Shown in pieces: positions 10,689 to 63,790 of a DNA stretch of 64,000 nt (positions are counted from its first letter, which is position 1; each line of letters starts with the position of its first letter). The notes beneath the pieces are model-generated. The model saw only the letters and a program-made list of their open reading frames with translations. It did not search any database and was not told where the DNA came from. The position numbers and the translations under genes are program-made. This DNA comes from Myripristis murdjan (taxonomy: Eukaryota): NCBI RefSeq assembly GCF_902150065.1, contig NC_043987.1, positions 1,625,386 to 1,689,385 on the forward strand. The letters are read 5' to 3'.

Positions 10689-11932
10689 AGGATTGAAGGC
10701 GGCACTAGGATCTAGTAGATCTCATGTGTCAGTGCTGTGGAGGGCTTTGAACCCTGATTGAAGCAGATCATGGATCTTGTTGGCATTCAGGAATCTTTGT
10801 ATTTGTGGCGGGACAATTTTCTGAAGGGAAGTGCAATTATATCACATTTTTCAAAATAGGTGAACTATCCCTTTAAGGAAAAACTTAAAGTGCTGCGATT
10901 CTAAAATTTGACAGGTGTTAATATCAGTGGTTACTGACCTTATTATGACTGCTGACTGGAAGTTGTAGTTTTCTCACTGTTTGACCATATTATGTTGATC
11001 TGCTAAAAGAAATGAATAGAAATAGTTTAGAAGGCAGAACTTGAGCACACTGTAGTTTGATAGCAGATGATTGGGGAAATAACAGGTGAACCAAAACTAC
11101 AAGTTAAAACTGTAAAACTGCTGGTGTAATTACATCTATTTCAAATTCAACCGTAGCAATAAATAATTCAGAAAATATCTAGAGGAGCATTTTATGGGGT
11201 TTGCTGGTAAGCAAAGCAGCATTAATCATTTGGAGCCTTAGCAAATTGACTTGATTTCTCCCTAAAACATGGGGTAAAGGTTATGAGCAAATTAACAAGG
11301 AATGACCTGAACAAGATCAAGAAAGAAAATGAAAAATTACAAATAAAAAAAAAACAAGAAAATTACTTGTTAATTAGACAAAAAACTTTCAAGAAAATCA
11401 TCAGGTAATTAGCATAGATAGATAGATAGATAGATAGATAGATCTATTACATTACATTATAAGAAAATTATCAGCAAATCACAAAAGAAATTGGCAATGC
11501 ATAAATAAATAAATAATACATTTACAAAAAAATGTGAAGAAATTGCAAGAAAACTATATTTAGAATTATTATGATTGTGTATTTACATATAAATATATGT
11601 AAATTACCATAAAATTACTACAAAAAGTTAAAAAAGAGAAAAGAAAAGAAAAGAAAAGAAAGAAAAAACAATAACATTACTTCCAAATACTGATTTTTTT
11701 TGTGTGTAAAATTACCATAAAATTACCAAATGAAATAAAATAAAGTAATTAAATAAAAAGCATGGTCAGTTTTGTCAGGAGAGTGAAATCAAAGCCCTGC
11801 CTGCAGAGTCCTGGGTTTCGTACCATCACACAGCCATGAGTTTGCATGGAGTTTAAAGTTGCACCATCCGAGAAGCTGACAGAATAGCTAGCTGCTGGCT
11901 TTAACAATAGCGCCCTCTGGCTTGTGTTCTAG

Positions 11933-12167
11933 GTATGCCTCCATCCCAGTGTACATGGTACCCCTGGTGGCCCCATGGCAGTGCAACATGGGAGCGGCTC
12001 TGCTCATGGCTCTGCAGTTCTACTGGTTTGGCCTCATCTGCAGAGGAGCCCTCCGCCTTTTCACCAGAAAAAGCCCACCGATGCCCACAGAGGAGTCAGA
12101 TGGCCGTCCACCCCCGGACAGCCAACCCGTGTCCCAGCAGCTGGAGGAAGAGACACACAAACACTGA
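11933..12167 (+). CDS. tlcd3b: TLCD3B-like terminal coding exon (ends TGA 12165-12167)
   Basis: Acceptor cttgtgttctag|G. Translation YASIPVYMVPLVAPWQCNMGAALLMALQFYWFGLICRGALRLF...THKH*, from ORF 11922-12167. Total CDS is 864 nt, 287 aa, in frame across all six exons. Confidence 0.85.
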
Positions 12168-12589
12168 GCAACAGAGGACAGAGCAGCAGTATGAATGCAG
12201 ACACGATGGCTGACACACTGCAACAGTCTGCTGCAGTGACAGCTGCCAAAAACATTAAGGAGGGAACTGCTAAGTGACTTGGGCAGGTTGGATCTTTGAC
12301 CAGCAGAGTGGAGTGGAGGGACGAGTGTCTCTCCTGCTTTGATGTCCAACAGAAAGAAGAAGGGAGACATGGCAGTGAAGGCCAAACAGCAGCTCTGACT
12401 GAGCGGTTAATGCAGAAGTGAGGCGGCTCAGAGCTCAGTGAGCAGGGAGAGGCTGTGGCAGCTGCCAGGGACACAGCGGGACACGGCTGATGGGGCGAGG
12501 GGCTGACACTGTGTTAGTGGGACACTGTGGACACCCAACCTGAGCCTGCCGGGACCCGCCGGCCTTTGTGGCCGTTACACTTTTGTGGT

Positions 12590-13240
12590 AATTTTATGCT
12601 AATTTCCTTGTAATTATATTTAAATATACAAAATAACGATTCAAAATATAGTTGTCTTGTAGGTTTTTAACAAGTTTTTTTTTTATGTTATTAAGGTTTT
12701 ATTTCACTCTTTTAACAAAATTGACAATGTTTTTTATTTAGTTATTTTGTTTTATTTTATTTGGTAATTTTATGATAATTTTTTCAAAAGAGAAATTTCA
12801 GCATTTTTGTGGTAATGTTATTAATGTTAATACTCTTGTGTGGTAATTTTATGGTAAGTTTTCTGTAAATTTTTTGAACATTTTCACCATGTTTTTAAAG
12901 ATAATTATTTAATATTTATTTTTTGTTTGTTTGTTTATGCTAATTACTTAATTATTTTTGTCGACTTTTTTTCTGATTTGCAAGAGGTTTTCTTGTAATT
13001 TTTTTATTTTTAATTTTCTTGCAATTCTAGTTTCTTGATTGTTTCTAGATTTTTTGTGATTCAATTTTATGGATGTTTTTTATTTAATTATTGTAGTTTA
13101 ATTTATGTGGTAATTTTATGGTAACTTTACGGCAACAAAAATTTCAATATTTTTGGTAATGTTGTTGTTGTTTCTTTCCTCTTTCTTTCTTTTCTTTTCT
13201 CTGTTTAAAAATTTTTCGGACAGGGTTTCAGACATAAATT
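12590..13240. repeat. AT-rich minisatellite-like tandem/dispersed repeat (GGTAATTTTATGnTAA... units)
   Basis: Repeated units such as tggtaattttatggtaa / gtaattttatgctaatttcc. Related copies lie at 11290-11760 (reverse), 25690-26090 and 35700-36080. Confidence 0.6.
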
Positions 13241-15368
13241 TAGAAATTATGTTTGGGTTCAGTCACGGCGGCTTTACTTTAGTGAAACTCTAGTGTAACA
13301 TAAATAAAAATGATGGAGCTGTTCTGGGCAACTTCCTGTACAGTGCTGGAGTTTGCGTGACGACACTGAAGGCAACATGTAGGCTATTTCAGGTGGTAAA
13401 TGTAACCTGGTGATGGAGAACGAGCAAAATCTCAGGCTGGGGTTGGGTATCCACTCTAGTTCGGACACAAAAAAGAATGTCTGTGGAGTTTGGGTCAGGC
13501 TCGGTCACATGGCTCCTGGGCTTAGGCTGGCTTTGGATACAAATATGCGTCCCAATCCACACCCCAGTTCGTGTAGAGCTGGGAGGAACTAAAATGGGAC
13601 TGTTGTCCTGTGAGACAAAACATTAGAGTAAAGCTATAGGAATACATTCAAGGCTTTATTGAAACTGCTCTCTGCACATGCTAGAACTCCAACTGATTTC
13701 TCGTCACAGATCCCCCAGCAGACACCACTGAGCCCTGCGGACGCCCAGTTGCCTCCAACATTCACGTGTAACTATGTTTTGTTCCTGAAACTTGTAATAA
13801 AACATATTTGAAACCCAGCTGTTTGTTGTGGCATGTCTGAGAGATCCATGTGCTGACCTGCCTGTGACGAAACATAGTGCTATTATTGAGTTAAAAAGGC
13901 AACTCATGCAAAACTAGAGATTTTTGGTGGAGAATGAGGAGCTGAAGTTGGACTTGAAGTTGGAAAGCCAGCTTGAGCCATACTGTACCAACTATCCTGC
14001 TATACTGTGCCAACATTTAGCACAGGAGTTAGCCTAGCCCAAGTTCACATTGTTATGTTAGCTCCCGATTCTTTTGTTGAAAGCCCAAGAACAGACCGGA
14101 GTCAGTCTTCAATTTTCTGATGCAATATTTATTATGGTCACATATAAGCAAAGCAGCGCTGGTCTCAGTGTGACAGAGCTCCCGCAGGATCTCAGTCAGA
14201 ATGAGCCCCGATATCAGGAAATGATGTTCTTGGGCTGGGCCTGCCCCGTACATAGGTTGGACTTAAACGCAACCGAGAATAATTGGCCAGTTACCCGGAC
14301 ATGGACAGGCCAACCACTGTCCATGCCTTGTTTCTGGAATGTGTGATGCTATGTGTGTGAATGTTGACTGGGCGTGTATCTGATGCAACAGACCTAACTA
14401 ACAAGATAGAGAAAGTACATCTGGCTCCTGCTGTGTCTATCCTCTGCTTTGCAGCCAAGCTGCCCTGAACTATGTAATACATTGGATAATGCAAGAAACA
14501 TTGAACTATACGGCCAATTGTAACAGTTATTTGATCAAAAGCTTTTGGGTGACTGTTAGTCACTGTAGGGGAAAAAACTGAATTCAACTGAACGCCTTAT
14601 TGTCATTGTACATTACTATACAACGAGATTAAGAGTGCTACTCCACCATGGTACTCACCTACAATAAATAAATAAATACAACAGTATACAAAAAAGGAGC
14701 CGGGGAGATGGGGCAATATTCTGAGGAAAAAACTTTCAAGGTAAATTTTTGAGAAAAAGACTCACAAATTTAGGAGAAAAAAGATGACAAAAACAAGACA
14801 AAATACAAAAACACAACATATAACACTCATAGATCCAGTGGAGGCAGAGGGCAGAATGGGAACCGCTGGTGATGTAAACAGGAAGTCCCCTGTAGACCAG
14901 ACTGTCCCATTTCAGAGACCGCTTGGTCCAGCCTTCATGGACCACAAAGGCTGGGTCCTGGGAAGGCTGCAGCCCCTGAATTGAGGCACAGCAACAGTAT
15001 GTTGACTGTGAAGACCCGCCCCTATTCTGCCTGTGATTGGCTAACCCAACCCTAACTCTTTACTTAACCAGCCTACCCAATGAAGGCAACCATTTAGAGG
15101 CACATTAGGACAGTATGTTGGCCCAGCAAGTCAATTTAATCTCCTCCCACACCATGTCAGCCCAGCCTGCCATTTCCTCACCTGCCCTGTCTGTTCCCCA
15201 CAATAAAATCAAATCCTTGTGTTTCATTTTAAACAGCTCTCATTGTGTGTCTGCATTTGGGTTCAGCTGCAGCTTTGTGATAGTATTATCGATGACATAG
15301 CAGGCCTATGCCAGGAGCAGTGACTCACTTAATTCCTGGTAGAACTCCCAACCGACCCCCCCATCCAT

Positions 15369-15416
<48 letters not shown>

Positions 15417-16709
15417 AATGCTCATGGCTCCCATGCTACTACTTTATATGTGCACTGAAACACTAAACACTTTGTTAATATTTCACATGAAAAGGGCATA
15501 TTGTACTGCTGATCCTTTGCTTGCAATAAAGTTTTTGGTGAAAAACTACAAGCGCTTAGCTTGACACAGCACATACTGCGCAGTAAACCACGTGACCGCA
15601 TACTGTTTCTTCCGGGATCACAACACTGCAACACGCCCACTCGGTCCTAACCCAGTCCAAACACTGTGAAAACATCCACATCAGAAGTCACAAACTGCCT
15701 GACTGGGGACCGAGCCGTCTGCCTCTCGTAAACTAGTGCCAGCGCCCAAAAGGACAAGGTAGGGGCGCTCCAAAGCAACTCATGTCTCAGCCTAAAAAGT
15801 TGAGAACGGGTTGCCATACTCAATTAAAAATATGAGAGTTTAACCTCGCCCTGCGTATTGTCAAAGCTGCATGCCTGCTATAAAGTGTCTGAACATGAGG
15901 TTTGAATAGATAGGTGGCAGACTTCAGATCGGCATGCACCAAACATAGCAAGCAGCGCTTATTATGATCAAATCTGAACTTTCACCAGTGGTTCTCCTGT
16001 TATTGCGGCAATGCGCAGCCCTTAAAAAACAGCGGAGGGCGCTGGCAAACACTGGGAGGCAATGATAAAAGTTGAGATTTAATTAAAATGAAGAGCTGTT
16101 TGGTGTATAAGACATATGCCGCGTTGAAGTGCGTCTGCTTTGGATTGTTAAAATGTCACAAGTCACTACGTGTCTGCATTGGTATTGAGTCGACAAGCGA
16201 GGCAACATTGAACTGATCAGATTTTTTAATGAGATTCGGCGCCGTTTTATTGAAACAAAGTGTATCGGGGGTTAGCATCGACTGAAACATTTGTTTCTTT
16301 CCCTTAGCGAATCAGCCATTTGAAATATTCCTAAAGCATAGGCTACAGTTTCAGTAAGAAGAACTCAAGTGGAAAATTATAATTTTCACAATGTCATAGT
16401 CAATTAAAAAAAAAAGTGGTCAGTGAAATCAAATTGAGAGAATACACATCTGAGGGTGCTAGGCACAAAATGGAGTATATCTTGACTGGAGCTACTGTGA
16501 AAGGGCTGGACTCCCAGCTGGAGCAGATCACTGTGGGAGACTGATGCTGGGCCTGCTACAAGGAAGTGGGCAAAGTGCGTCAGCCCTTTGCCCTGACAGC
16601 AGTCTTTATGATCTGCAATAGGCAGTAGAGGCCCAACACTTCCACATTTGCATGCAGGTGATGTTTCCCTGTGGCTCATGTAGGCTTCCCCTCTCGCTCT
16701 GTGTTGTCG

Positions 16710-17079
<370 letters not shown>

Positions 17080-17399
17080 TATCCAGAATAGTAGAACCAT
17101 GAAAAGCTGAGCATTATAGGCAGCAGGAGAGGAAACGTTATGGCAGAGCAGTTGGACTGGATTGGATTAGATTGTCTAGGTGTTCCTGATAAAGTGGCAC
17201 AACCCTCCCAGTAGACCAGTTGTAGCAGGTAACAGCTGCTTGTCTGAGCCTTAAAGTCAATTTGTATGTCTGTTGGTATGAAACCTGGTTTCAGTAATTG
17301 AATCCAGAATTTCAGCAGTTTCGTTAGTGCATAGCTGGGCTTGCACTCCACATGGGACCACACTTTAAGGGACAGCCATTATTTCACTTCCCCTCTCTA

Positions 17400-27501: not shown

Positions 27502-28075
27502 TGAAGCAAATAGGAAAAAGGCAGATTTTAAGCCAAAACTCTGAATGTGATCTTGAACAGTTTATTTTTGCAGCATCTGTTACCATGGCGATGAAGCCGG
27601 GTCAAAAGAGAGCCGCCTTCATGACACGGCAAACTCTGGCTTTTGACTCAACTTACCTTGCTAACCTGTTAATCTTGCTTCGTAGTACAGCCCTCTGATG
27701 CAAAATGGTCCAAAAAGGGTTGCAACATGTTAAGCTGGCCTGTACTTGGTCATTAATAGATTTTGAAAGATGTCACATTTTATATCCCACCAAAGCTGAC
27801 CCCAATCGCAGTTGGCAGCATACATAAAGGCCCTTTTTTCCTAGTTTGGTACACACAGGAGGAACTGAAGGTTAACATTTGGAGCATCCAGCCAGTATCC
27901 AGCACTCAGTAACAATGAGAGGAAGATAGCACCACTACTGTACTACATAACAGCTGGGGGGAAGTGAAATAATATCATATTTACAGAATAGTTGAAAGAA
28001 GGGCACCCTTTGTTGAGCCGTAGGACTTCCCTCTCATCTCTGTCCTCCCTCCCCATCTCCTCTCCATGTCATCAG

Positions 28076-28312
28076 AATGCGCTGCATGTCCGCGCTCTGC
28101 GCCCCTTTAAGGACAGTGGTGGGCGAGACCGGCGTACGGGGGAGGAGTGGCTCGTCACCATGGCTGACAGGGAGGCCCACATCCCTTCAGTGGCTGAGGA
28201 GGTGGTGGACGTGGTCAGCGTGACCACTCTGAACAGCAGGCAGTACTGCGTGATCCTGGACCCGGTGGGACCCGACGGGAAACCTCAGCTTGGCCAGAAG
28301 AGGGTGGTCAAG
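28076..28312 (+). CDS. mvp: MVP coding exon 6
   Basis: Acceptor ccatgtcatcag|AAT and donor AAG|gtgagg. Translation [79 protein letters not shown]. Confidence 0.93.
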
Positions 28313-30013
28313 GTGAGGAGGACCCATCCCACAGGCTGGCTGTTCACTGATCACTAAAAGTACGGACGGACAAAAATGACACCAAAACTAAATAAAACGA
28401 AAAGTGAATTTTTGTTGACAAAACTATGACAAAATATCATGACATTAGAGACAAAAATGCCACAAATGAACCAATGAAAACAGAACTCCTGAGCTCAGTT
28501 TAGCAAGGAAGACATATGCAAACTTTACTTTTGATATTAAGAATAAAAACAAAAACTAGAAACAAAAGGCAAGAAGCTGTGTTGAGGAATGCACATCAAT
28601 CTGTGTGTACAGGTCACTGCCAAATCATGTAATGAGGAAATCACAGAGAAAAAATGTGCACAATAACTGAGTAGAATTAAATTAAAAGTTTCATTCTCGT
28701 CGACTAAAACCACTGCAGTTCTTGTCAGCTAAGACCAGACAAAAACTAACAAAATTCAAATGACTAAAATGTGAATAAAACTAAAATGCATTTTAGTCAA
28801 ATGAGTAAAGCTGCAACACCTCACAATACATCCTACACCACAGCTCAACATATTATACACTGAAAAGACCCTACATAAGGTACAGTTATCATATTACAAA
28901 AATCAACTTCAAGTTCAAGTTTCAAGTTTATTTCCTGTCTGCCAAAAATACACAGTTTAAGTACTTTTAACACGTGCAGACACAAAGCAGCATACAATAT
29001 GAACACTCACATATTTCAAAAATCACGTAAAATAGATAATAATAAATGTTGTAAGGTAAAATGCAAAATTCAGATAAAATAAATAGGTTAGTAAAAGAAG
29101 TAAAATCAGAAGAGCAAATGGTGTAAAAGTGTCTGCTTTAAAAAAAACGGACCACCTCAGGGTAAGAATTGTCTCGGGAACTGTTACAAACCATGTGACA
29201 AGGAACCCTCAAACAGCTTTCAGCTCATAAATGATGTTGACCTGAACAATGTAGGTTATTCAGATAGTTTTTAGCCTCCAGTGTCCATGTAAAAAGCATG
29301 CAATCCATGAGGCCTGAACTTTCAGAATTAACTCTGAGTGAATTCCAGGAGGTGTTTTTGGCCCGACAGGCGTCTTGTACGTTCTGGCAGAACATTTCCC
29401 CATTCGCCAGCTTTCAGTGGGGCGGGAAGCACAGATGGCTAGACTTGACCCACGTGTGTAGTGCAAAGCATTATTGTTATTTGAGTGTACAATAGTATAA
29501 TCAGAATCTTATGAACTAGATAGATAGATAGATAGATAGATACTTTATTCATCCCGAAGGAAATTCACAGTTTTTCAGCAGTATCCACAGATTACAAGAT
29601 TAAATAAAAATAAATAAATAAATGAGATCTAAGTACAACACACTAGAGATCTAGGTACAACAGTGTGCAAATAACAATGTGCAAAAAAACGTGTGCATAG
29701 GTGTATAAAATGTGCATAGAAAATAAATAAAATGTGCATGTAGGTCAATGTGCAAATTTAGAAGAAATATACAGTATACACAGATGATAAATAGCAGTAA
29801 GCAATATAAACACTATAAACAAGGGATATAAAAAAAAAAACTAGTCCTATTAAGTCCTAGCCCCAGTGACAGCCAGTCACTAACAGTCAGACACCCAGTA
29901 TGATTAAAGAATTAGCTCCCCCAAAAATTAATTTTGCCACTACCAAATTAGCCCTCATGTCAGAAACATCTCTAATTTTCTTTTTCCTTCTTCCTCTCTC
30001 TCTCGGTTGGTCA

Positions 30014-30139
30014 GGGTGAGCGCTCCTTCTTCCTGCAGCCAGGAGAGCACCTGGAGCATGGCATCCAGGACGTGTACGTGCTGTCAGAGGAGGAGGGCCT
30101 GGTGCTGAGGGCTGTGGAAGCCTTCAACGACACCGAGCA
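30014..30139 (+). CDS. mvp: MVP coding exon 7
   Basis: Acceptor ctcggttggtcag|GGT and donor CAG|gtgagg. Translation [42 protein letters not shown]. It is too short to appear in the >=60 aa ORF track and was found by homology walking. Confidence 0.9.
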
Positions 30140-30810
30140 GGTGAGGGCAAGTCAGCTCAGGACAACAGCAGGAACACTGTTTCCATGACTTTGTTTTTGG
30201 AAACACTGCTCCCATTGCAGTCCATGATTTGTTCACTTACAGAAAATGCCGCTTAACCTTATAAAACATAAAATGTGGAATAATAAAGTTAGGAATCAAA
30301 GGAAGTCACTCTTTGACAGAATATGTTCAGCCTGACCAACAAGATGGTTAGACTGAACATAGTCCATGTTTGTGTGAGACCTACCATGTTTCTTTGCATC
30401 CAACGTAGAACTGACAGCTACTAACAAATCACTAACAGTACTACTACACTAATGCACTACCTTGCAGACAAACGGCATAGTGAAAAGGGGTTCAGCCAGT
30501 TTTTAAAAATGTGATATTATTTCACTTCCATGTAGGTGGTGCTATGTTCTTCTCATCATTACTGAGTGCTGGATACTGGCTGGATCTGCCAAATGCTAAC
30601 TTTTAGCCTCCTCCCATTGAAGTGGACTTCCCCCCGCTAGATTAAAAAAAAAAATAAAATAACCGCCTTTATCAACAGATGTCAGATGCCAAGACACTAA
30701 TTATATGTGCTGCATCTGTCCTAGGGAGAATTTGATGGTCACTTTAAGGTTTTTGACAACAGATGTGTACCAGTAGACATTTTTCACAGCAGCCATTTTG
30801 AGTTGAAATA

Positions 30811-30986
30811 GCAGGGTAAACACACGTGTCGCTAATAATAATAATTAAGATTCCATTCAACTCAGTTCAGGTCTGACAGAGCCAGGGTCCTGCTCTTGTG
30901 TATGCTGGCTGACCAGAAAGGCTCTGAACACTTAAACAGAACGGGACTGTAATTAATATCATTAGTAACACCTGTATTTACCCTGC
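30811..30986. mobile_element. MITE family with TIR GCAGGGTAAACACnnGTGTTACTAATGA, copy 1
   Basis: Termini gcagggtaaacacacgtgtcgctaataat ... attagtaacacctgtatttaccctgc. Related copies at 34132-34490 (with an internal insertion), about 48790-48962 and about 55417-55580. Confidence 0.65.
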
Positions 30987-31077
30987 TAGTTCATGTCAGA
31001 CTGTTAGCTTACTGTAAGTCTCCTGCCGCTGAGGTGGACCTCCCCCCCAGCTAACATTCTTAAAAATAAAAAATGAA

Positions 31078-34490: not shown

Positions 34491-35198
34491 TTTTTCAAAG
34501 GCTTGAAAAGCCCTGCATTAGCTGATCTTAGTGACTACTATTCATCTAGCTACCTGCTCACTTGAAAAAGCAGCCATAACTCCATGCATCAAGGAAGTCC
34601 TACCAAATTGTGTTCATAAATCCAAATTATTATATTATTAAGCTCTAACGCTGAGCCTAAGATAAAATTAATCCATAACCTTTAAGTGCCCCATGTGAAA
34701 ACTATCCAAAGCATACTGATTATTAATACCACAGAACTTTAATGGAGTAGAATGGACATTTGCCATGGTCATTTGGCTGGTACAGAATAAAATGACAGTT
34801 ACAGTTCTTTGCTATGGTGGCCATAAAGTGTGTCCCACTTGCTTGAGAACCGTTCAGTGCACCATCCTCCTTTCCTGACTTGGCTAACCCCTTCTACCCC
34901 TACTCTGTTCTCCTCCTCCTCTCCCCTTCCTTCCTGCTTCTCTCACCTTCCCTTCCCTGTGTCCTGACATCATGCGTGTTCATAATTGCACCTCCATCCC
35001 TTCCATTCTCCTCCCTTTATGGCTCAATCAAAAAACTGTCCCTATCCTTCTGCCATTCAGTGCCTCTCCCCAGTCCCCTCTCCTCCATGCCCCGCTCTCC
35101 TTTCTCCTCCTCCTCCTCCTCCACCCTTGCTCCAGTGCATCGCCACGTTAACCCTTCTCTCCCTCCTCCTCCTCTCTCTCCCCCGCTCTCTTTGCCAG

Positions 35199-35417
35199 CA
35201 AGAGGAGGAGGAAGAGGAAGAGGAGGAGGAGCTGATGGAGGAGAGGGCCAAGCGTTCACGGAGGAGTGGTGTCCTCCGTCGGCCTGGAGATCGCTGGATG
35301 TTGCGTGGGCCGATTGAGTATGTCCCCCCTGCCACCGTGGAGGTGGTGCTGAAACGCCAGGCCATCCCATTGGACGAGAATGAGGGCATTTACGTCCGGG
35401 ACATTAAGACAGGAAAG
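35199..35417 (+). CDS. mvp: MVP coding exon 8 (begins with a poly-Glu tract encoded by a GAG/GAA repeat)
   Basis: Acceptor ctctttgccag|CAA and donor AAG|gtgagt. Translation [73 protein letters not shown]. The exact acceptor inside the GAG repeat is uncertain by a few codons. Confidence 0.85.
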
Positions 35418-36911: not shown

Positions 36912-38134
36912 GTACGATTCAGGACAGTCCTCAGTTTGTTGACGAAATGTATTTGTCAGCTACACCTTTTCCCCGGTGAAAACAAAAAATGAACCTTGAA
37001 AACAAAAGCTAGATACAAAAGTTAGGATGTGTAATCTACATCAAGCTATGTATAAAGGTCACCAGCAAAGAATTGAATTAGGAATTTACAGAGGGGAAGA
37101 ATGTGAAAAATGATTCAGTAGAACTAGATTTCAGTTTTTGTTACTGACTAAAACCACTGAAGTTCTTGTAGACAAAAAATTGACCAAAACTACCTCGATG
37201 CAAATGACTCAGTTGTGACTAAAACCAAACTGCATTTTAGTAAAAAGACTAAAACTAAATCAAATTTGACTTGGAAACTAATACTGATTCAGGACTGATG
37301 TTGCATAGACATGGACGATGGATGGCAGGGGAAGTGGCAGTCAGAATGACCGGATGGAAGAGTGAATAACATGAGTGATTTTCTGTGTGGGGAGAAGGAC
37401 GACTATACTACACTCTCCACTATTTGAGGTTACACATTTTAAAACTCCTGAGCTGCTGTGGTCTGATGAAACTAGCTCTCAATTTAAATGCTGAGAAAGG
37501 AGAAGTCAAGTCACGTCTTGACTTGACTTGACTATTCCTTGAGTAAAAAAAAAAAACACAGGAAGTATACAAATGGGCTGAAATTTAAGATCACTAAATA
37601 AAAACAGTATCCAATCATTTAATAAAACTCATCAACAAGACATGTTGAAGAGTTGGCCAGTAAGCCACAACATCTGGGTGCCATGTTTTTATCCTTGCCA
37701 TTCTAAATAAAGGCTATTTATAGAGTGCCTTGGACATAGTTTTTGTATTTTTGGGATTCCAGCCCCTTTTTTATACTTCCTGTGTGTGTTTATTTATGGA
37801 ATATCCAAAAAACTCACTTTTTTTCTGAGGTTTGACTTTAATTAATTTTTCCAGTGTTATTATTGCATGCCTGTTTTTAGGGTAGTGTATGTTAATGCCT
37901 ATGGTAATTTTGTTTGTCTGGCACCATCCTGTGTCAATATGATGGCCAGTGTGTTGTAATCACATGGGGGCTGGACATTATTCTGATGTAAGACACTATA
38001 ATCAATAAAAACCCTGGAGTAATTGCAATGACCAATGGGATGTAGAAATGAAAAATAGAAGAGTCACAGCAGGATAAATAGATATGAGATGCAGTGAAGT
38101 GGTGAACGTGGCAGTGTTGTCCTCTTGTCGACAG

Positions 38135-38332
38135 GGTGGTGTTTGGGCCAGAGATGGTGATGCTGGGGCCAGACGAGCAGTTCACTGTCCTGTCACTGTC
38201 CGGGGACAAACCCAAGAGGGCCAACGTGATCAAGGCCATCTGCCTCCTGCTGGGGCCGGACTTCTTCACCGACATCATCACCATCGAGACAGCCGACCAC
38301 GCCCGGCTGCAGCTGCAGCTGTCCTACAACTG
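38135..38332 (+). CDS. mvp: MVP coding exon 10
   Basis: Acceptor tcttgtcgacag|G and donor TG|gtaaag. Translation [65 protein letters not shown](W). Confidence 0.93.
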
Positions 38333-38609
38333 GTAAAGCATGGCTGTCAGTCAAGCCACCACACACAGCTGGAAGGGGGGGAAAATCTGCCTCACTTACT
38401 GTTAGAAGTTCATTTAAGACATTCTACAAATCATTGGGAGCGTCTATGTAATTCAGTGTGCAGCACTTATTTCAGTTACATCTCAGTGACATGGCTTTCC
38501 CAGTTATTTCTACAGTATCCTAAACCAAAATACACTGTGGTGGGTGGCATCAAAGTAAAGTACATTATTCATCTGAAGATGTTCATTTAGTTTCCCATTT
38601 TCTATATAT

Positions 38610-39425
38610 GAAGTTAGGATGTTCGTAGATACAGACTATACAGTTTCTTGTTTACCTTGACATGTTTTGACTGCTGTGTGTCCTACAGTCTTCCTCAGAA
38701 GTTTCACATGATATTACCATGACATTTCCTGTCAGCTGTAGGTAGGACAGCCATGCCCCCTGCTGTGCAACAGTGTCATCAGGATGGCGTCCCATGTATG
38801 TAGTGGCTGGTTCCCCTGTCCTTTCCATATTTCTGTCACCTCTTTGATCCAACACTGGTATCTGTTGATGTGATGATCTTGGCTCCCTCCTAGTCCATAA
38901 CATGGTTTTCCCTTTTACAACTGTCGGAGACCTACATAGAGGAAGCATGCTGATTATTTGGCACGTAGGAAAAAAGAATGTGAGAAAGAAACATCTGGAG
39001 TGCACACCTGAGCAACAAAACCAAAAGCAGATCAGGAAGTTGGAAATCAGCAGTTTCAGACAATTGCAAAAGTGAAAAATATGTCTTGGAGAGGAAGCCA
39101 AGATCATCACATCTGAAAGGAACAGGTACCAGCACTGGTTCAAGGAAACAGGCCCAGAGAACTGTAAACCAGGATTAGGGTGCCTACCAGCTACCATGCA
39201 TCTGGACACTGTCTCTGATGTGGCTGTCAGACAGCAGGGGGCATGGTTGTCTTAACAGGTCAGGTAGGGCAACCAGACCTGTGTTAAACAGCTGACAGGA
39301 AATGTCACAGTAACATCATGAGACACTTGTGAAGAAGACTGCAGCACACACAGCAGTCAAAACATGTCAAGGTGAACAAAGAAACACCACGTCCAAATCT
39401 AAGAACATCCTCACCTGAAGTACAA
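38610..39425. repeat. Foldback / long imperfect inverted duplication (arms of about 330 bp at roughly 75-80% identity, about 120 bp loop) in MVP intron 10
   Basis: The reverse complement of 39090-39420 aligns with 38613-38900, for example aggatgttc...ccttgacatgttttgactgctgtgtg at both ends and gccaagatcatcacatc / gatgtgatgatcttggctcc near the centre. The 185-aa minus ORF 38652-39209 is an artefact of it. Confidence 0.7.
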
Positions 39426-39643
39426 GGTGTCTATAAAGTCTCTTTACAATTTAACACTTTTATTACAAAAGCAAATGAATAGACAAATCTGTGGAAATTA
39501 TTACAAAATGAGGAGTAGATATTGAAGTTTTTTTTGCCTCATTTAATACACTCCTATATGGGCACCATTAGTTGCACGAAGCACATCAAGACAGACAGTA
39601 CTCCATTTCTTGCCATGTTCGATGTAGCAGAGCCTCATCAATG

Positions 39644-42494
39644 CACTGGCGGTTCTGGGGAGGGGCCAGCAGGGGCCAGTGCCCCCGTAACACTGTGCCC
39701 CCCCCTCCGAACAAAGATTTTACATTGTGATGCGGCTTTCACATAGCGTGCGGTTTGGGCCGCGCTCTGCGCTGGGTACAGCGCACATAGATCTATGACG
39801 GCGCACACTTGCGCAGAGCAGCGTGCACACGCGGGCCATTTCTTCTTGTGGTTGTTGGCTCTGTACAGGACACTTTAGAGATGCTGTGTCAAACATAGGG
39901 GCATCAGGGGGACGGTGCTGTTATTTCCTATTACTGACAAAGAAATGAGACAAATGAACTGGAGGGAAAACTGGTTCACTGCAGCCACAAAGAATAGAAG
40001 ATATGTTACTTTTTAATTTTTTTTATTTATACATTTATTCAATTTTTTTTTTTTCTTATCGTTGGGCAACAGGTACAGTAGCCCTAAATGGATCTTGAAT
40101 TGGAGCATTTTAAATTAAAAGCTGAAACTGAAAAAACAAAATTGGAAAGGACAAGACACACACACACACACACACACACACACCCCAGGTCCCGTCCCCG
40201 TATCAAGGAGCAGGCGCAGGCGGTATGGTATTAACGGCAACGACCGCAGTCTTCATGTCGGTGACCCTGACCAGAAGCCACGGAGCAGTTCTTGGCACAT
40301 CATGGTGGCGCAGTCTGGACAACAGCACGGTCCTTGCGACCAGATGTTCAGCAGGCCAATGGACCGTCTCCATGACAACAGTGATGCAAGCATTGGCTCC
40401 TCCTAGCAGAAGAGAGCGCCTGCATCCGTCAGCATCACCAGTCTGTGGACCCTCATAGTCCAGTAATTTTAGCCCAAAATTGGGTCAACCTAGGACAAAT
40501 AACAAGAGAAGCAAATTGCAAGAGTTTTTTTCTCTTGCAATTTGTCCTAGGTTTTTTCCTAAAATGACTGGACTAATAGTCTCTGCGCAGGCTGCACCGA
40601 CCACCGGAGACCGGCCTGAGGGGCGCACCTGCTGTGCAGCTAGCAGAGCCAGCTGGAGAGCCCGCCTGGGAAAGGCGAGACTCGCTTGGTCTTTGCTCAG
40701 TCTGAGAGCAGATCCAGCAGATGTGGACACCCCCCCCCCCGCTGAACTTGGAGGGCGGACACACACTGCCGAGCGGCCAGCCCTATACAGACAGCCTAAC
40801 CTGGTCTCAGACCAGCCGAAGACCAACTCCAGCATGTGCGACACACACCTGCTGCCGAGCCGGCTTTTTATGGCCTCTGCTGCTCCGGCCAGTGACGTCA
40901 CCAGTCAACCAGATGATGAGGACGCACGCGCAGCATAGACAACACCTGGGACAGTGCTCAGTACTTTACAGTCACCTGCACAGATACTTGTTTGTGACGG
41001 ACGGCATGACGTCACAATGGCTACAGCTCTACATTCTGCATTGTTGATTGTTTTTTGTTTGTGTCCACGGACACTGAGTATGCAGGTAACACATCCGCTC
41101 AGTTAAAACAGGCTATGGTGCTAGAGTTTGAAATTTGGTCTCAGCCTCAGTTGATGCTGAAATGACGATGAAATAGTCTGTGTGCGATTAAGATGAACAT
41201 TGTTATGAGGTGAGACAAACAACTGGAACTGCAGAGTGTATGGACCTTTTGTTTTGCCACTTGTGCTCCTTGCTTGAGTTTGTACTGTTTCCAATGATGT
41301 GCAGTGTGTTTCCTGTCATTGTGTGTGTTGTTGTTGAGCCTTGCTTTGTTCTAGCACCTCCAGCAGGCCAAAATGTTGTAGCAGCTGTAGTGGTGGTTGA
41401 AATTTTCTCTTGGTGTGTTTTTATCAGGCGGTAACTGGAACCAAGTTCCATAATCTGAATGCAGCTCTGTTTACACAAAGGCGTTCATCATGAAGGGCAC
41501 GCATGCACAGCGTGCACGTATGTGGCGCTGGTTGCTACGCGACTGAAACAGACGCTAGGAAGTAGTTTTCCGTTCTGGCGCAATTTTTCTCTGGTGGACA
41601 GCACAGCAGCTTCGGATGCACCGTGTAAAGAGGCTAATACATTTTTTAATTTATGAATTAGCTGAACTAATGCTTCTTAATAAATTAAGTTACATGAACG
41701 AAGGCTGTATTTTTTTCTCATTTCATGTGATTTCACCTGTTACCTGTTGTGTGTGTGACTTCACATGGAATTTTATAATAAATGTATGACTATACTGCAT
41801 TGTCTTTGCAAGAGTAGTGCATATCTAATGATGTCATTCATCTAGATTTCTAAAAATAAACGCAGACCAGTGCGCTCTTGCGCTCCCTGATCACATACAC
41901 AATGAATGGCTGAGCCAGCCGCGGTCTGTGCCGTGCGCGTGCTCTGTGAAAGCCGCTTCAGAGCGTTGCACCTGGAAACGGCGGTCAGTTTTGTTGATCT
42001 ACGGTGAAAACAGCGAGCTCGAAAAGTCAACCACCTGATGAGAGGCAGTCAGAAGCAAGAAGCGACTACCATGAACAATATTTTATTGTTACAAGGTAAC
42101 AATAAGCTTTTAGAGTGTAAATATGATGATGATTTATTGATGAAGATGATAAGAAGACAGTGGTGTAATGAAGATGTGATGATGATGTTGATGAAACTGC
42201 CTGATAAAGATTTTAGAAGCAGGAGTTTGTACTAAGTGAGGAGTTTGTCTGTACTAAGGTTACACTGAAAAATAGGATGTCTCCATTGTTTCTGTCTCTT
42301 ATACTTGTGTCTCAAATGTGATATTTTGAACCATTCAGTTTGGTTACAATGGGTTATCACTGGTTTTATTGGGAAAAAAATCAGATATAATTTTGAGTCT
42401 TTGTCTTTTTTGCCCCGGGTTGAATGTGCCCCTCTGACAAAACCCCTGGCCCCAGCCAGGGCCCTTCAGTAAAATTGGTCTAGAACCGCCACTG
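39644..42494. mobile_element. hAT-like element (2.85 kb) with a perfect 8-bp target-site duplication, CATCAATG, in MVP intron 10. It has long subterminal inverted repeats and a GC-rich core.
   Basis: Termini CACTGGCGGTTCTGG (39644) and CTAGAACCGCCACTG (ends 42494). Identical CATCAATG at 39636-39643 and 42495-42502. Subterminal inverted repeats gcggctttcaca(t/g)agc at about 39745 and about 41950 (reverse). Core 40560-41050 is CpG-rich with two TGACGTCA palindromes. No transposase ORF. Confidence 0.7.
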
Positions 42495-42765
42495 CATCAA
42501 TGGTGGCAATGGCATCAGTGATCTTTTGCTGAAATACACAAATGCAATATGATTAAAAACTTTGATAACCACTGAGTACATAGAACAAATCTGATGAACA
42601 TATCTCATCAATTGCTTTTGTAATAGATTTTTTTAATTTGTAAAGAGACTTTGTGGACACCCTGTACTTGCTACTTGATGAATCACAGGGGTACTGGATT
42701 GAAGCGTGGCGACCCCTCTTCTTCTCTGTTTTCCTTTATCCGTCTTCCTGTCTCACTCTCTTCAG

Positions 42766-42910
42766 GCACTTTGACGTCAAGACTCGGGCAGATGCTGCTC
42801 AGGCAGCGTCTCTGTTTTCAGTGCCCGACTTTGTGGGAGACGCCTGTAAAGCCATTGCTTCCCGGGTCAGAGGTGCTGTCGCCTCAGTGCAGTTTGACGA
42901 TTTCCACAAG
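42766..42910 (+). CDS. mvp: MVP coding exon 11
   Basis: Acceptor tctcactctcttcag|G and donor AAG|gttggt. Translation [48 protein letters not shown]. The preceding 4.4 kb intron contains a foldback and a 2.85 kb hAT-like element. Confidence 0.93.
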
Positions 42911-43994
42911 GTTGGTCTTGACCAGTGAAGATTCAGTGCTTCACAGACTTTGCCATACCAAATTCCCCGAACCACAACCAGCTATGATAAGATTTTGTCA
43001 TTAAGAACCCTATATGAGAGGACATAAGTGGCATTTTCCAAAGTGGGAGGGTCAGGGACTTTGATTAAGTCTGCAAGGAATTTCAGAAGTAACAGGAACT
43101 TTCACAATCACTTAACAGGAATATTGCACTTGTAGTTTTCAACTTGTTTCACATTTTAATCACACTAGACAAGTTTCAGCTTAACAGGAGCTATAACCAT
43201 CTGATCGATAAGATAATGATAATAAGATAATGTTGATGTTACTTTTATTTGTTGTTTTGCTTTAAGTTGTCTTGTGTTGTTTATCTGTAACTTTTATGTC
43301 TGTCATGGACGCTGCTTTTCTTGGCCAGGTCTTCTTTGTAAAAGAGATCTTGTATTGTGTCTTTACACTACACTTAATCTTGGTCTAAGATCCCAGTTGC
43401 CCCTTGGTTAACTGTTTTTTCACACTTCCAACTTAGAATGAGGGATATCCCCACTCTTAGCCCAGGGCTTACTATCCCTGAATTTTTTGGGGTTAAGGTC
43501 TGTAGCAGGAATAGGGCTTAGAATCAAAGTAAGAACAAAAGCAACAGAATATTTTTGTAAAAGCAATAGGATATTTGTTATCCAATCAAAACTGTGCTAC
43601 AAGTGTTGTGAAGACATCAAACCTGGTCTTTGATTTTCAAATGTGAATCCTGAACCCAGGGCTAAGTGTTAGGCCTTGGTTAATAAGCACTAGTGGGAAT
43701 CAAGGCTAAGCTAAGATCTTGGGTGCAGTTAGTTGAGGGCTTAGTTAGCTAAGGGCTAAGGAACCTAAGTGTGATAAGAGCTAATGAGGCTTTTTTTGTT
43801 AAATGAAAAAGAGAAAATAAAAATAAAGACTGTCAAATGGTATTATTAAACCAATAATATGGTATTATTAAACAGTTTAGGTCATGGTGGTACTCTGACA
43901 CAGTTATGGAAAGTCATAGAAAAGTCATGGAGTTATACCTCAGGGACACAGTGGGAACCCTGGTCTAAGACCTTTCCTGTTGGTTTGTGGCTAG

Positions 43995-59659: not shown

Positions 59660-59866
59660 GTTTAAAACAGGGCTGTTAAACTGGTGCCATGGAGGGCCAA
59701 GAGGCTGCAGGCTGTTTTTCCAACCAAAAACTTCCAGGTGATTTCACTGATTCCTCCATTCTCTCTGCTTTTAAGCTGGGGTAATCAGTGAAGTTTTTGG
59801 TTGGAATGAAAACCTGCAGCCACTTGGCCCTCCATGGCACATGGTTTGACAGCCCTGGTTTAAAAC
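59660..59866. mobile_element. Palindromic MITE (about 207 bp, roughly 95-bp arms)
   Basis: Left arm gtttaaaacagggctgttaaactggtgccatggagggccaagaggctgcaggctgtttttccaaccaaaaacttc. Its reverse complement recurs on the right (gaagtttttggttggaatgaaaacctgcagccacttggccctccatggcac...ccctggtttaaaac). Confidence 0.65.
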
Positions 59867-60959: not shown

Positions 60960-62644
60960 GTGTGATTTAAGTTAACTTTTTTTGGTTTCTGAGGGAGTTT
61001 TTGGCTTTTATTTTGCAGATGGACAGTGACTTGAATATGCAGATCTAATTTTTTTTTTTCTTCTTGTTTCAAAGACCTAACTAGCCACTAAGGCCAGCAG
61101 GCTCAGTGGGTCCCTGTGTTCATGCTACTTAACCTCTCACCAAAGCAGCTCTGGTTCTTGAACTGGTTTTGCTCTGGATTTTGGGAGCCAAGGTGCTGGT
61201 CGGTGTTTGCAGCAGTCTGGAGTGACAGAGGGGTCTCCAGGTTGCTGGCCAGCAGTGCTGTGTCTGAGTTCAGCCCCAGCAGTCAGGACGCTTCTTACCC
61301 TGTCAAGCACTACTTCTTGCTACAATGTTTAATAATACTTCTCCATCTTTTCCTCAAGTGTATGAGCTGTCTGAATTGAAAGTACTAGTTTTTGTTTCTT
61401 CAGCAGACCACAGCATGCTCTTGTAGAATAAGACACGCCTACTTTTGTCATCATGGTTCCCACTTAAGGTCTATTTTTTTTTTTTTTTGCTTCCAGATGG
61501 GAACCATTTTTTCAGCTTCCAAACAAATTTGTTTTTGGTCAAAACTCTCAGAACAGTTCATATTTTTATACTATACATATACTGAAACGGAATCTGTTCC
61601 TTACTGGTTGGAAAGTCCTGTGAGCAACTTGGTTATGAGTTGTTAGAATTCAATTGTGTGTGATTTTCAAAATCATCATATTACGATAAGCCAGCTTGCA
61701 AGCTTATACTAGTTAGCCAACAATCAAAAATGGGCAAAAACAGCCAAATGAGTTTTGAAAGGCTGTAATCAACTCATCTTTTTTTATTACAAATTTGTAT
61801 TTTTTTTTTTTTTTTTTTTGGCAGTTCGTGACCTTTGACTACTTATTTGAAGTCATTTCTTGCTAATCTGCTCATTGCCTTTTCCTAAGGTTTTGAAAGA
61901 ATTCAAGTGAATTTGCTCAGGAGTCAAAGGGTTAGCAAAGCACATCAGCACTTAGATATTAGTACAGTGAAGTTCACATGCATTCACTTTGAAGCAGGGC
62001 TCCCAGTGGTCATGAAGCTCTCGTTATATCATTCAGAAATGTTTATTCCAGGTAGGAAGCTTCTTAAAATCATTGGGTAAGTCACTTTACTGGAATATAG
62101 AAAAATGTTTTTTCCCACTTTTCTCATGCATTTCTTTCTTTGTAAGATTATTTCTTTTGCATTGTCACCATGGGAGCTATAGTTCTAGTGTCCAGCATCC
62201 AGTAACAATGAGAAGAAGATAGCACCCCGACTGTCCCACATAACAGCTAGGGGGGAGGTTAAATAATATCTCATTTTTCAAAATGAGTGATTTAACCCTT
62301 TAAAGAGTGTTAGTGCCTGTGAGTGAATGCTGAATGTCATTTAATATTAGTAGAGTGTCAGAGCAGAGCAGTCGGCCTCCTGGCTTCTGGTGTTCCACAG
62401 CGCTCGGTCTCCTGACATTCTGCTGGGCTTCCCTGGACCGTCCGGCTGCCTCCGTTCACCTGCACACCACAGCACACACACTCTGCTCTTAGTCGTCATG
62501 TACTTACATATTCCTGATGCTTCAAGTGTGATGTAATCTCACCTGAAGTAGGCCTACTGCTCATCTGAAACCTGAAATTCCAGAACTGCCTACTCTACTT
62601 TGCCTTTCTCCTTGCTTTCCAACTGTCTGGATACTAATACCGAC

Positions 62645-62675
<31 letters not shown>

Positions 62676-63609
62676 AAGTAAGAAAAAGCAAAAAGTCAAA
62701 GAAAAGCAAGCCATTGCCATCAAATCAAGCAGAAATCAGCATATTAAGTTTAATTTGTCTGGACAAACTTATGTCCACTTAGTGTCTTCCAATGGCTTGT
62801 GGATGGCCATGCTTTTAGTTTTGTTTTCCCAAGTGGAGCACTCGAGCGTGCCTCCGTGGGATCTGGGAGGTTTGAAGTGGGCATCTCCCAGTTCCCGTGA
62901 CGTCTCCAACACAGCATAAAAACTGAGGTTGAGCACTCGTTGGATCACTCCACTCTTACATTTGAATGTAGCTTTTAATCCCCTGCAAAATCTATTGTTT
63001 GACTCAGGAGAAATCAACCGAAAGGACATTCTCGCAGTTGCATAATAATTTCTGCACCCAATAATGACAATTAAAATTTTTTAAAGAGAAATTACTTGAA
63101 AAATGTGTTTACCACCCCTTTAATTTTGACACACAACAGCACTAACAACAACACTGTGGACAGTTTTTTGTTGAAGCAAAACCTGGCTAAAGCCCAAGTG
63201 AATTTGCAGCTAAGATTAACACAGCTAAGATTAACACAAACTAAGAGTTGACAAGTTGTGGATGGTTTTGGACAGATTACCTGTCAGTATGTTGTACTGG
63301 TGCCACTGTGTTGGTCTGCCACTGGCCACTAGCTCAGGTTCTGGGAGTCTGTGTTCAGTCCTGTGGCTTGTCCTGTCGGGGGTGGGACCTGCTGGGCTGA
63401 TGATCTCTCTGACAGCCTGGCCACTGCGATACTGAGCCCAGTTTTCCAAAGTCATGTTGGCCCTCTAGAGAATGAGGAAGGTAAAGGAGCTAAGAGTGTC
63501 TTCTGTATATATCTCCCACAACACTACAGAGGGATATTTCAGGAAACATGCTGGTAAAAAAAAAAATTCAGCCTTTCCTAAAAAAGCCTGACTTGAGTTA
63601 GCATGGTCT

Positions 63610-63790
63610 TTTAAAGGAATAGTCCACCCATTTTGAAAAAAAAAATGGATATTTCACTTCCCCCCCAGCTGTTCTGTAGGACAGTAGTGGTGCTGTCTTC
63701 CTCTCATTGTTACTGAGTGCTGGATACTGGCTGGATGCTCCAAATGCTAACTGTTAGCCTCCTGCCACTGAGATGTACAGCCAGTAATCT
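63610..63790 (+). mobile_element. SINE-like element, full-length copy (+)
   Basis: Same family as 17400-17600. Other copies or fragments: 1540-1600, 2541-2610, 2700-2770, 7630-7785, 9710-9825, 10830-10880, 23720-23810, 27875-27990 (-), 30525-30640, 31000-31070, 33865-33960, 49455-49560, 62180-62300 (-). Confidence 0.7.

Follow-up and report, generated by a model that had tools for sequence, protein, structure and literature searches.

A non-coding foldback in a major vault protein intron of the soldierfish Myripristis murdjan: a candidate decayed DNA-transposon insertion

A non-coding inverted repeat of 802 bp lies at positions 38613-39414 of the window, the stretch of 64,000 nucleotides of Myripristis murdjan DNA analysed here, inside an intron of the gene for the major vault protein (MVP). 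With modest preference, the foldback is read as the decayed remains of a single insertion of a non-autonomous DNA transposon of the long-TIR/foldback-like or large-MITE type. This reading is drawn from its sharp symmetric ends, its non-coding middle, arms foreign to the ancestral intron, and the abundance of other TIR-bounded structures in the window. The initial annotation of this DNA had mainly put forward a source of small RNAs and had offered a foldback-type transposon as the alternative; the alternative is the better reading.

The host gene was identified as MVP of M. murdjan, the pinecone soldierfish, by tblastn followed by database search. A human MVP sequence served as the tblastn guide for locating the MVP exons, and the M. 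murdjan MVP protein P0002 was then found by tblastn to match 16 coding exons at 100% identity on the + strand, between 23085 and 47630. The two exons bordering the host intron, 38133-38332 and 42766-42910, likewise match P0002 at 100% identity (tblastn) and delimit the following feature:

38333-42765 (4433 nt), + strand: MVP host intron between the 10th and 11th coding exons, with GT at 38333 and AG at 42764-42765

All eight annotated MVP isoforms join ...LQLSYNW directly to HFDVK... across this intron by normal exon 10-11 splicing, and exonisation of the foldback was rejected because the intron is skipped in 8/8 of them. Elsewhere in the gene, the NCBI MVP model carries a poly-glutamate stretch in coding exon 8 (~35196-35270), which the Ensembl isoforms P0001 and P0003-P0006 retain, lack or carry in shorter form; the differences between isoforms are due to this region.

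The foldback begins 280 nt into the intron, counted from the 5' splice site. Two inverted arms make up 85% of its length and surround a centre of 121 nt, as follows:

38613-38931 (319 nt), no strand assigned: left arm, in gapped alignment with the reverse complement of 39053-39414; nhmmer arm profile E = 4e-97
38932-39052 (121 nt), no strand assigned: middle domain (the hairpin loop), non-palindromic and without a Pfam-matching ORF
39053-39414 (362 nt), no strand assigned: right arm, from the same gapped alignment; nhmmer arm profile E = 8e-117

When the left half was aligned, with gaps, to the reverse-complemented right half, 254 positions matched, 57 mismatched and 59 columns held gaps; the identity is 82% if only aligned bases are counted and 69% if the gap columns are included. 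The alignment score of 218 compares with 20 +/- 2.7 (maximum 35) for shuffles, and among 300 random pieces of the window, each 850 bp long, none scored above 100. Four ungapped inverted blocks are collinear, and the longest pairs 38648-38739 with 39288-39379 (92 nt, 89%); others pair 38743-38782 with 39215-39254 (40 nt, 80%), 38867-38889 with 39091-39113 (23 nt, 96%) and, at the very ends, 38613-38630 with 39397-39414 (18 nt, 89%). The symmetry breaks off sharply at 38613 and 39414, and both arms begin and end at matching homologous positions. In the centre (38932-39052) no palindromy above the shuffled level was found, the symmetry score there being matched by 76 of 500 shuffles. Around 39256-39296 the right arm holds about 36 bases with no counterpart in the left arm, which are visible as a small side hairpin in the MFE structure. 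These extra bases form a small palindrome flanked by TTAA on both sides (TTAA-CAGGTC...GACCTGTG-TTAA), and they may be a nested mini-insertion or the counterpart of a deletion in the left arm. A palindromic assembly artefact was excluded by the 18% divergence of the arms and the many indels between them.

These measurements agree closely with the initial annotation, which had described an 815-bp foldback at 38610-39425 with arms of ~330 bp and 75-80% identity. Its assignment of the foldback to MVP intron 10 holds as well, for the mapping of P0002 puts the host intron after the 10th coding exon. Two pairs of matching motifs had also been pointed out in it, and both were recovered: the central pair as gatgtgatgatcttggc at 38867-38883 with its complement at 39097-39113, and the outer pair as ccttgacatgttttgactgctgtgtg at 38656-38681 with its complement at 39346-39371.

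The foldback is non-coding. No Pfam match was obtained for any of its open frames of at least 40 aa, and a chimeric query combining all of these frames with the ORFs of the flanking intron found 0 homologues among 5.8 billion proteins. A coding or pseudogene origin was rejected on the grounds that no frame has a Pfam match or a homologue. One reading frame within the foldback had been called in the initial annotation:

38652-39209, - strand: spurious 185-aa ORF inside the foldback, without homologue, Pfam domain or collection record

Searched on its own, this ORF again had 0 homologues among 5.8 billion proteins, and against 1.84 billion representatives it gave one match, P0121, a 61-aa, 30-fold tandem-repeat protein. 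P0121 was rejected as a homologue because its summed score is a tandem-repeat artefact. The initial annotation had called the ORF spurious and had explained it by the foldback. The first part stands, as neither a Pfam domain nor a homologue was found; the second does not, because an ORF as long as 185 aa is expected by chance about once per 64 kb, so that the foldback is not really its explanation. The ORF is flagged as spurious and should stay out of the annotation.

Known RNA families and repeat classes were equally without a match. Rfam returned no family within 38613-39414, even at E <= 1. As regards miRNA precursors in particular, there is no Rfam miRNA match at that threshold, and the predicted structure is one hairpin of 800 nt, where such precursors have one of ~60-80 nt with a Drosha-type basal junction. 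No tRNA was found by ARAGORN in 38000-43000, no tRNA-, 5S- or 7SL-like head was matched by Rfam at E <= 1 in the foldback, and no tail repeat is present at either arm end; a SINE origin of the arms was rejected on the ARAGORN result and the missing tRNA, 5S and 7SL matches. TRF at a minimum score of 30 found no tandem array in 38613-39414, and a classic FB element with subrepeats was rejected for the lack of tandem subrepeats in the arms.

The same intron was compared among fishes. In three outgroup MVP loci, those of Centroberyx affinis (L001), Diretmus argenteus (L002) and Polymixia lowei (L003), the orthologous intron measures ~752 bp, 1208 bp and 539 bp, respectively, against 4433 nt in M. 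murdjan. Exact look-up of the MVP exon-10 ORF yielded ten Logan contigs from more distant fishes (L006-L015), and in those that reach the next exon the orthologous intron is only ~150-200 nt long. The foldback is absent from every other fish MVP intron compared (three outgroups and ten Logan contigs). The Centroberyx intron aligns only to positions 38312-38538 and 42713-42792 of the window, and both segments lie outside the foldback and outside a second insertion in the same intron, designated element B:

39418-42669 (3.25 kb), no strand assigned: element B, a second non-coding insertion with 61-62-nt TIRs at 39418-39478 and 42608-42669 that are 85% identical

Neither the foldback nor element B gave a blastn or nhmmer match in the three outgroup MVP introns. 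Within the 4.43-kb intron the foldback occupies 0.80 kb and element B 3.25 kb, 4.06 kb in all; this leaves ~380 bp and explains nearly all of the excess length of the soldierfish intron. By this comparison of sequences, both were added in the lineage from which Myripristis comes. One foldback-type transposon would have landed in the MVP intron in that lineage, after its split from Beryciformes, Trachichthyiformes and Polymixiiformes; with the unrelated TIR element B adjoining it, the two would together have made an intron that used to be small about ten times as long. The protein sequence of MVP coding exon 10 (66 aa) is the same in at least 24 contigs that come from unrelated sequencing runs of fishes; this exon is extremely conserved and the intron keeps its position, while the lengths of the intron in different fishes span a more than 20-fold range.

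Element B starts 3 nt past the foldback and is separate from it. It ends in CAAGGTGTC...GACACCCTG, each end bordered by TA inside the palindromic target AAG-TA-CTT, and the target AAGTACTT is perfectly palindromic. These TA-flanked ends have the look of a Tc1/mariner-type insertion. The TIR motif occurs at only two sites in the window, which are the element's own ends; element B does not recur elsewhere in the window, and its ORFs contain no Pfam domain. A composite of the foldback and element B with common TIRs was rejected because the outer ends are unrelated, and the termini of the two share only a loose AGGxTGTxC motif, read by eye. The chance of two insertions falling within ~6 nt of each other in an ancestral intron of ~380 nt is roughly 3%. 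Such adjacency suggests either that insertions are favoured at this place or that one of the two elements attracted the other. The CpG observed/expected ratio in the interior of element B is 0.4-1.1, much above the 0.0-0.17 of the foldback.

Several other repeats were seen in the window. Within element B, positions 40487-40553 form a small near-perfect hairpin with 29-nt arms and a 9-nt loop, which gave weak, sub-threshold Rfam matches on both strands to mir-982 (29.6 bits, with the gathering score at 70) and MIR8001; it is probably a tiny palindromic MITE and not a miRNA. Five more structures bounded by inverted repeats lie at 11708-12782, 27865-30606, 30794-31003, 59684-59840 and 62187-63728. 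Their arms are 51-86 nt long with 75-90% identity, two of the five are located in other MVP introns, and none resembles the foldback; presumably they are remnants of other DNA transposons or MITEs. At 15355-15417 and 16600-17110 lie long microsatellites, (AC)n/(TG)n and (TA)n, which give rise to two spurious ORFs of at least 150 aa (16606-17100 on the - strand and 16652-17110 on the + strand) and to many artefactual inverted-repeat calls.

At the borders of the foldback a short direct repeat was found, which is a candidate target-site duplication:

38607-38614, no strand assigned: left copy of the candidate target-site duplication, TATGAAGT, with the exact core TGAAGT at 38609-38614
39414-39421, no strand assigned: right copy of the candidate target-site duplication, CCTGAAGT, with the exact core TGAAGT at 39416-39421

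The two 8-mers, TATGAAGT and CCTGAAGT, match at 6/8 positions, which is suggestive of an 8-bp target-site duplication, since about this retention would be expected at the 18% divergence of the arms. A 6-nt direct repeat arises by chance in 2-3.5% of trials with comparable flank windows, so that the repeat is weak evidence, and the inferred foldback termini are offset by 1-3 nt. The termini themselves give no clean match to any superfamily consensus. An alignment spanning the junction to Centroberyx was not significant and gave no base-exact empty site, because the outgroup introns are too diverged.

Further copies of the foldback were sought at several scales. Neither blastn nor an nhmmer arm profile found a second copy of the arms in the other 63 kb of the window or a copy in ~125 kb of the MVP loci of other fishes (15 fetched loci). 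The terminal motif of the foldback, with 2 mismatches allowed, occurs in the window only at its own two ends. Exact scans with a 22-mer and a 19-mer across metagenome, viral and prokaryotic contigs, which are essentially non-fish DNA, gave zero matches or two seed-limited chance matches, and a six-frame search found no copy among the ORFs of the collection of 5.8 billion proteins. With no other copy in these 63 kb, the family can have roughly 40,000 members at most.

The divergence of the arms bears on the age of the foldback. It amounts to a K2P distance of 0.21 (34 transitions and 23 transversions), the CpG observed/expected ratio of the foldback is 0.12, and the substitutions are evenly spread along the arms (chi-square p = 0.62) while the indels are concentrated mid-arm. 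Neutral rates in teleosts are a few 1e-9 per site per year. Read with such rates, the K2P distance would correspond to tens of millions of years of divergence between the arms, and by this molecular measure the foldback is old. It would have drifted neutrally during that time, encoding nothing.

Two other origins were weighed against a single transposon insertion. One holds that two copies of a single dispersed repeat of ~340 bp were inserted independently, in opposite orientation and ~120 bp apart, in the manner of the inverted Alu pairs of human introns. The arms are collinear over their full length, and a pair of old copies from a single family would typically differ as they do, by 18% and many indels; the symmetry-free 121-nt centre could then be ancestral intron sequence, and the region attracts insertions, as element B lies only 3 nt away. 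However, the absence of a third copy in 63 kb limits the family to ~40,000 copies or fewer, so that a full-length pair inside 1 kb is a priori improbable. Moreover, neither arm has a recognisable flanking duplication of its own, the arms carry no SINE head (tRNA, 5S or 7SL) or tail, and both start and stop at the same homologous positions. Taken together, such a pair of insertions is unlikely.

The other supposes a local inverted duplication, through fold-back repair or template switching, of intron sequence that had arrived earlier, with no transposition of a foldback unit. The uniform divergence of the arms (p = 0.62) is what would be expected of initially identical arms that drifted apart, no other copy exists in the searched sequence, and the target-site duplication is weak, all of which would suit a local event. 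Since the arms cannot be aligned to the outgroup introns, however, an additional earlier insertion would be needed, and thus two events instead of one; the unrelated spacer of 121 nt is large for fold-back repair, and the sharp symmetric ends with their flanking direct repeat fit transposition better. A local duplication is accordingly considered rather improbable.

The preferred reading, one inserted DNA transposon, may be set beside known systems. Drosophila FB, Galileo and Tetris are foldback-type or long-TIR elements, and the target-site duplication of Tetris is 8-10 bp (PMC4079207). Like them (PMC4079207), the foldback consists mostly of inverted arms around a short non-coding middle, has no ORF of its own beyond the spurious one, and is flanked by a weak direct repeat of 6-8 bp. 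Unlike them, its arms are without tandem subrepeats, the candidate duplication matches at 6/8 positions, no autonomous partner or further copy was found in the sequence searched, and assignment to a superfamily was not possible. With MITEs the foldback shares being non-coding, bounded by inverted repeats, intronic and capable of forming a hairpin. MITEs are, however, usually under ~600-800 bp, with TIRs of tens of nt and a high copy number, whereas the foldback, at 802 bp, is borderline in size and has inverted repeats of ~320-360 nt. As in inverted Alu pairs (PMC8096273), opposite arms of ~300 nt in one transcript would give a long imperfect dsRNA; Alu pairs consist of two independent SINE insertions from a million-copy family, whereas the pair of arms in the foldback is a candidate single element.

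The RNA of the foldback is predicted to fold very stably. The MFE is -406.1 kcal/mol for the + strand and -411.2 kcal/mol for the - strand, versus ~-242 kcal/mol for shuffled sequences (z = -18 and -23, respectively). About 74% of the bases are paired, the longest uninterrupted helices are 32, 24, 20 and 18 bp, and the predicted structure is a single hairpin of 800 nt. The initial annotation had expected a long hairpin from the transcript and had proposed a check of secondary structure; an extended, stable stem is indeed predicted on either strand, imperfect as it is. From the position inside the MVP intron we infer that the hairpin is transcribed. The foldback would be carried passively within the MVP pre-mRNA, on the sense strand of an expressed gene, and its arms would pair into an imperfect duplex of ~320 bp with perfect stretches of up to 32 bp. 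As DNA the foldback should be stable, given what is known of palindrome stability, the 121-nt spacer and the 18% divergence of the arms.

Long intronic dsRNA of vertebrates is normally edited by ADAR and discarded with the intron. The duplex formed by the foldback is likely an ADAR substrate; it would be promiscuously A-to-I edited and then degraded with the excised intron, and dicing into functional small RNAs would not be expected. A-to-I editing acts mainly on inverted repeats that pair within non-coding RNA, and in zebrafish editing is reported to be very abundant (PMC8096273). Since no copy of the foldback is present in another MVP intron, back-splicing across exons cannot be promoted by it. 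Among the mismatched arm positions, the transcribed (+) strand has 14 G:U versus 20 A:C, and its predicted fold is slightly less stable than that of the antisense strand, the two being near-equal overall. With no G:U excess and antisense folding no worse, there is no sign of a protected sense-strand RNA structure. The arms thus bear no sign of selection on the foldback RNA, and a passive and neutral reading is suggested by their sequence.

The main idea of the initial annotation, a functional hairpin-RNA locus, must be judged on the same data. It supposes that Dicer, or Drosha and Dicer, would cut the transcript into endo-siRNAs or miRNA-like RNAs that regulate a target. The fold is very stable, its helices of 32, 24, 20 and 18 bp are long enough for binding by Dicer or ADAR, and the foldback sits, in sense orientation, within an expressed gene; for some inverted duplicates that vertebrates express, a function has also been argued (PMC5398296). 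Nevertheless, no Rfam miRNA or other family is matched at E <= 1, the transcribed strand has neither a wobble bias (14 G:U vs 20 A:C) nor a folding advantage, mismatches and indels have freely accumulated in the arms, and the hairpin is missing in all other fishes examined. Nor did the remainder of the window or the protein databases yield a sequence that could be a target, and a hairpin of 800 nt is far from a Drosha substrate. To our knowledge, robust endo-siRNA output from long hairpins is in vertebrates essentially confined to mouse oocytes and ES cells. A functional locus of this kind is therefore very improbable.

Established hpRNA and endo-siRNA loci, such as the Drosophila hpRNAs and the mouse oocyte hairpins, are defined by small RNAs of 21-23 nt mapped to both arms and by complementary targets. 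The foldback resembles them in being a stably folding long inverted repeat, with transcription that is deduced from its intronic position. MITE-derived miRNAs, for example mir-548/MADE1, have pre-miRNAs of ~80 nt; unlike these, the foldback forms a hairpin of 800 nt and is without conservation in the other fishes compared. Even a young, holocentrid-specific hairpin-RNA locus, whose transcript would be heavily A-to-I edited or diced with a regulatory effect, is given hardly any credence. Were it true, regulation might concern, for example, MVP pre-mRNA processing or related transposon copies, and the foldback would represent a domesticated transposon hairpin in a teleost. Intronic foldbacks that are edited or diced in fish would likewise add to the catalogue of endogenous dsRNA sources, and nothing here gives particular reason for it.

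In conclusion, the foldback is an ordinary, old and lineage-specific intronic repeat with nothing indicating function, and its significance extends little beyond annotation. For the MVP gene, the comparison suggests that two adjacent insertions of DNA elements made a small, position-conserved intron 4.4 kb long in the soldierfish lineage.
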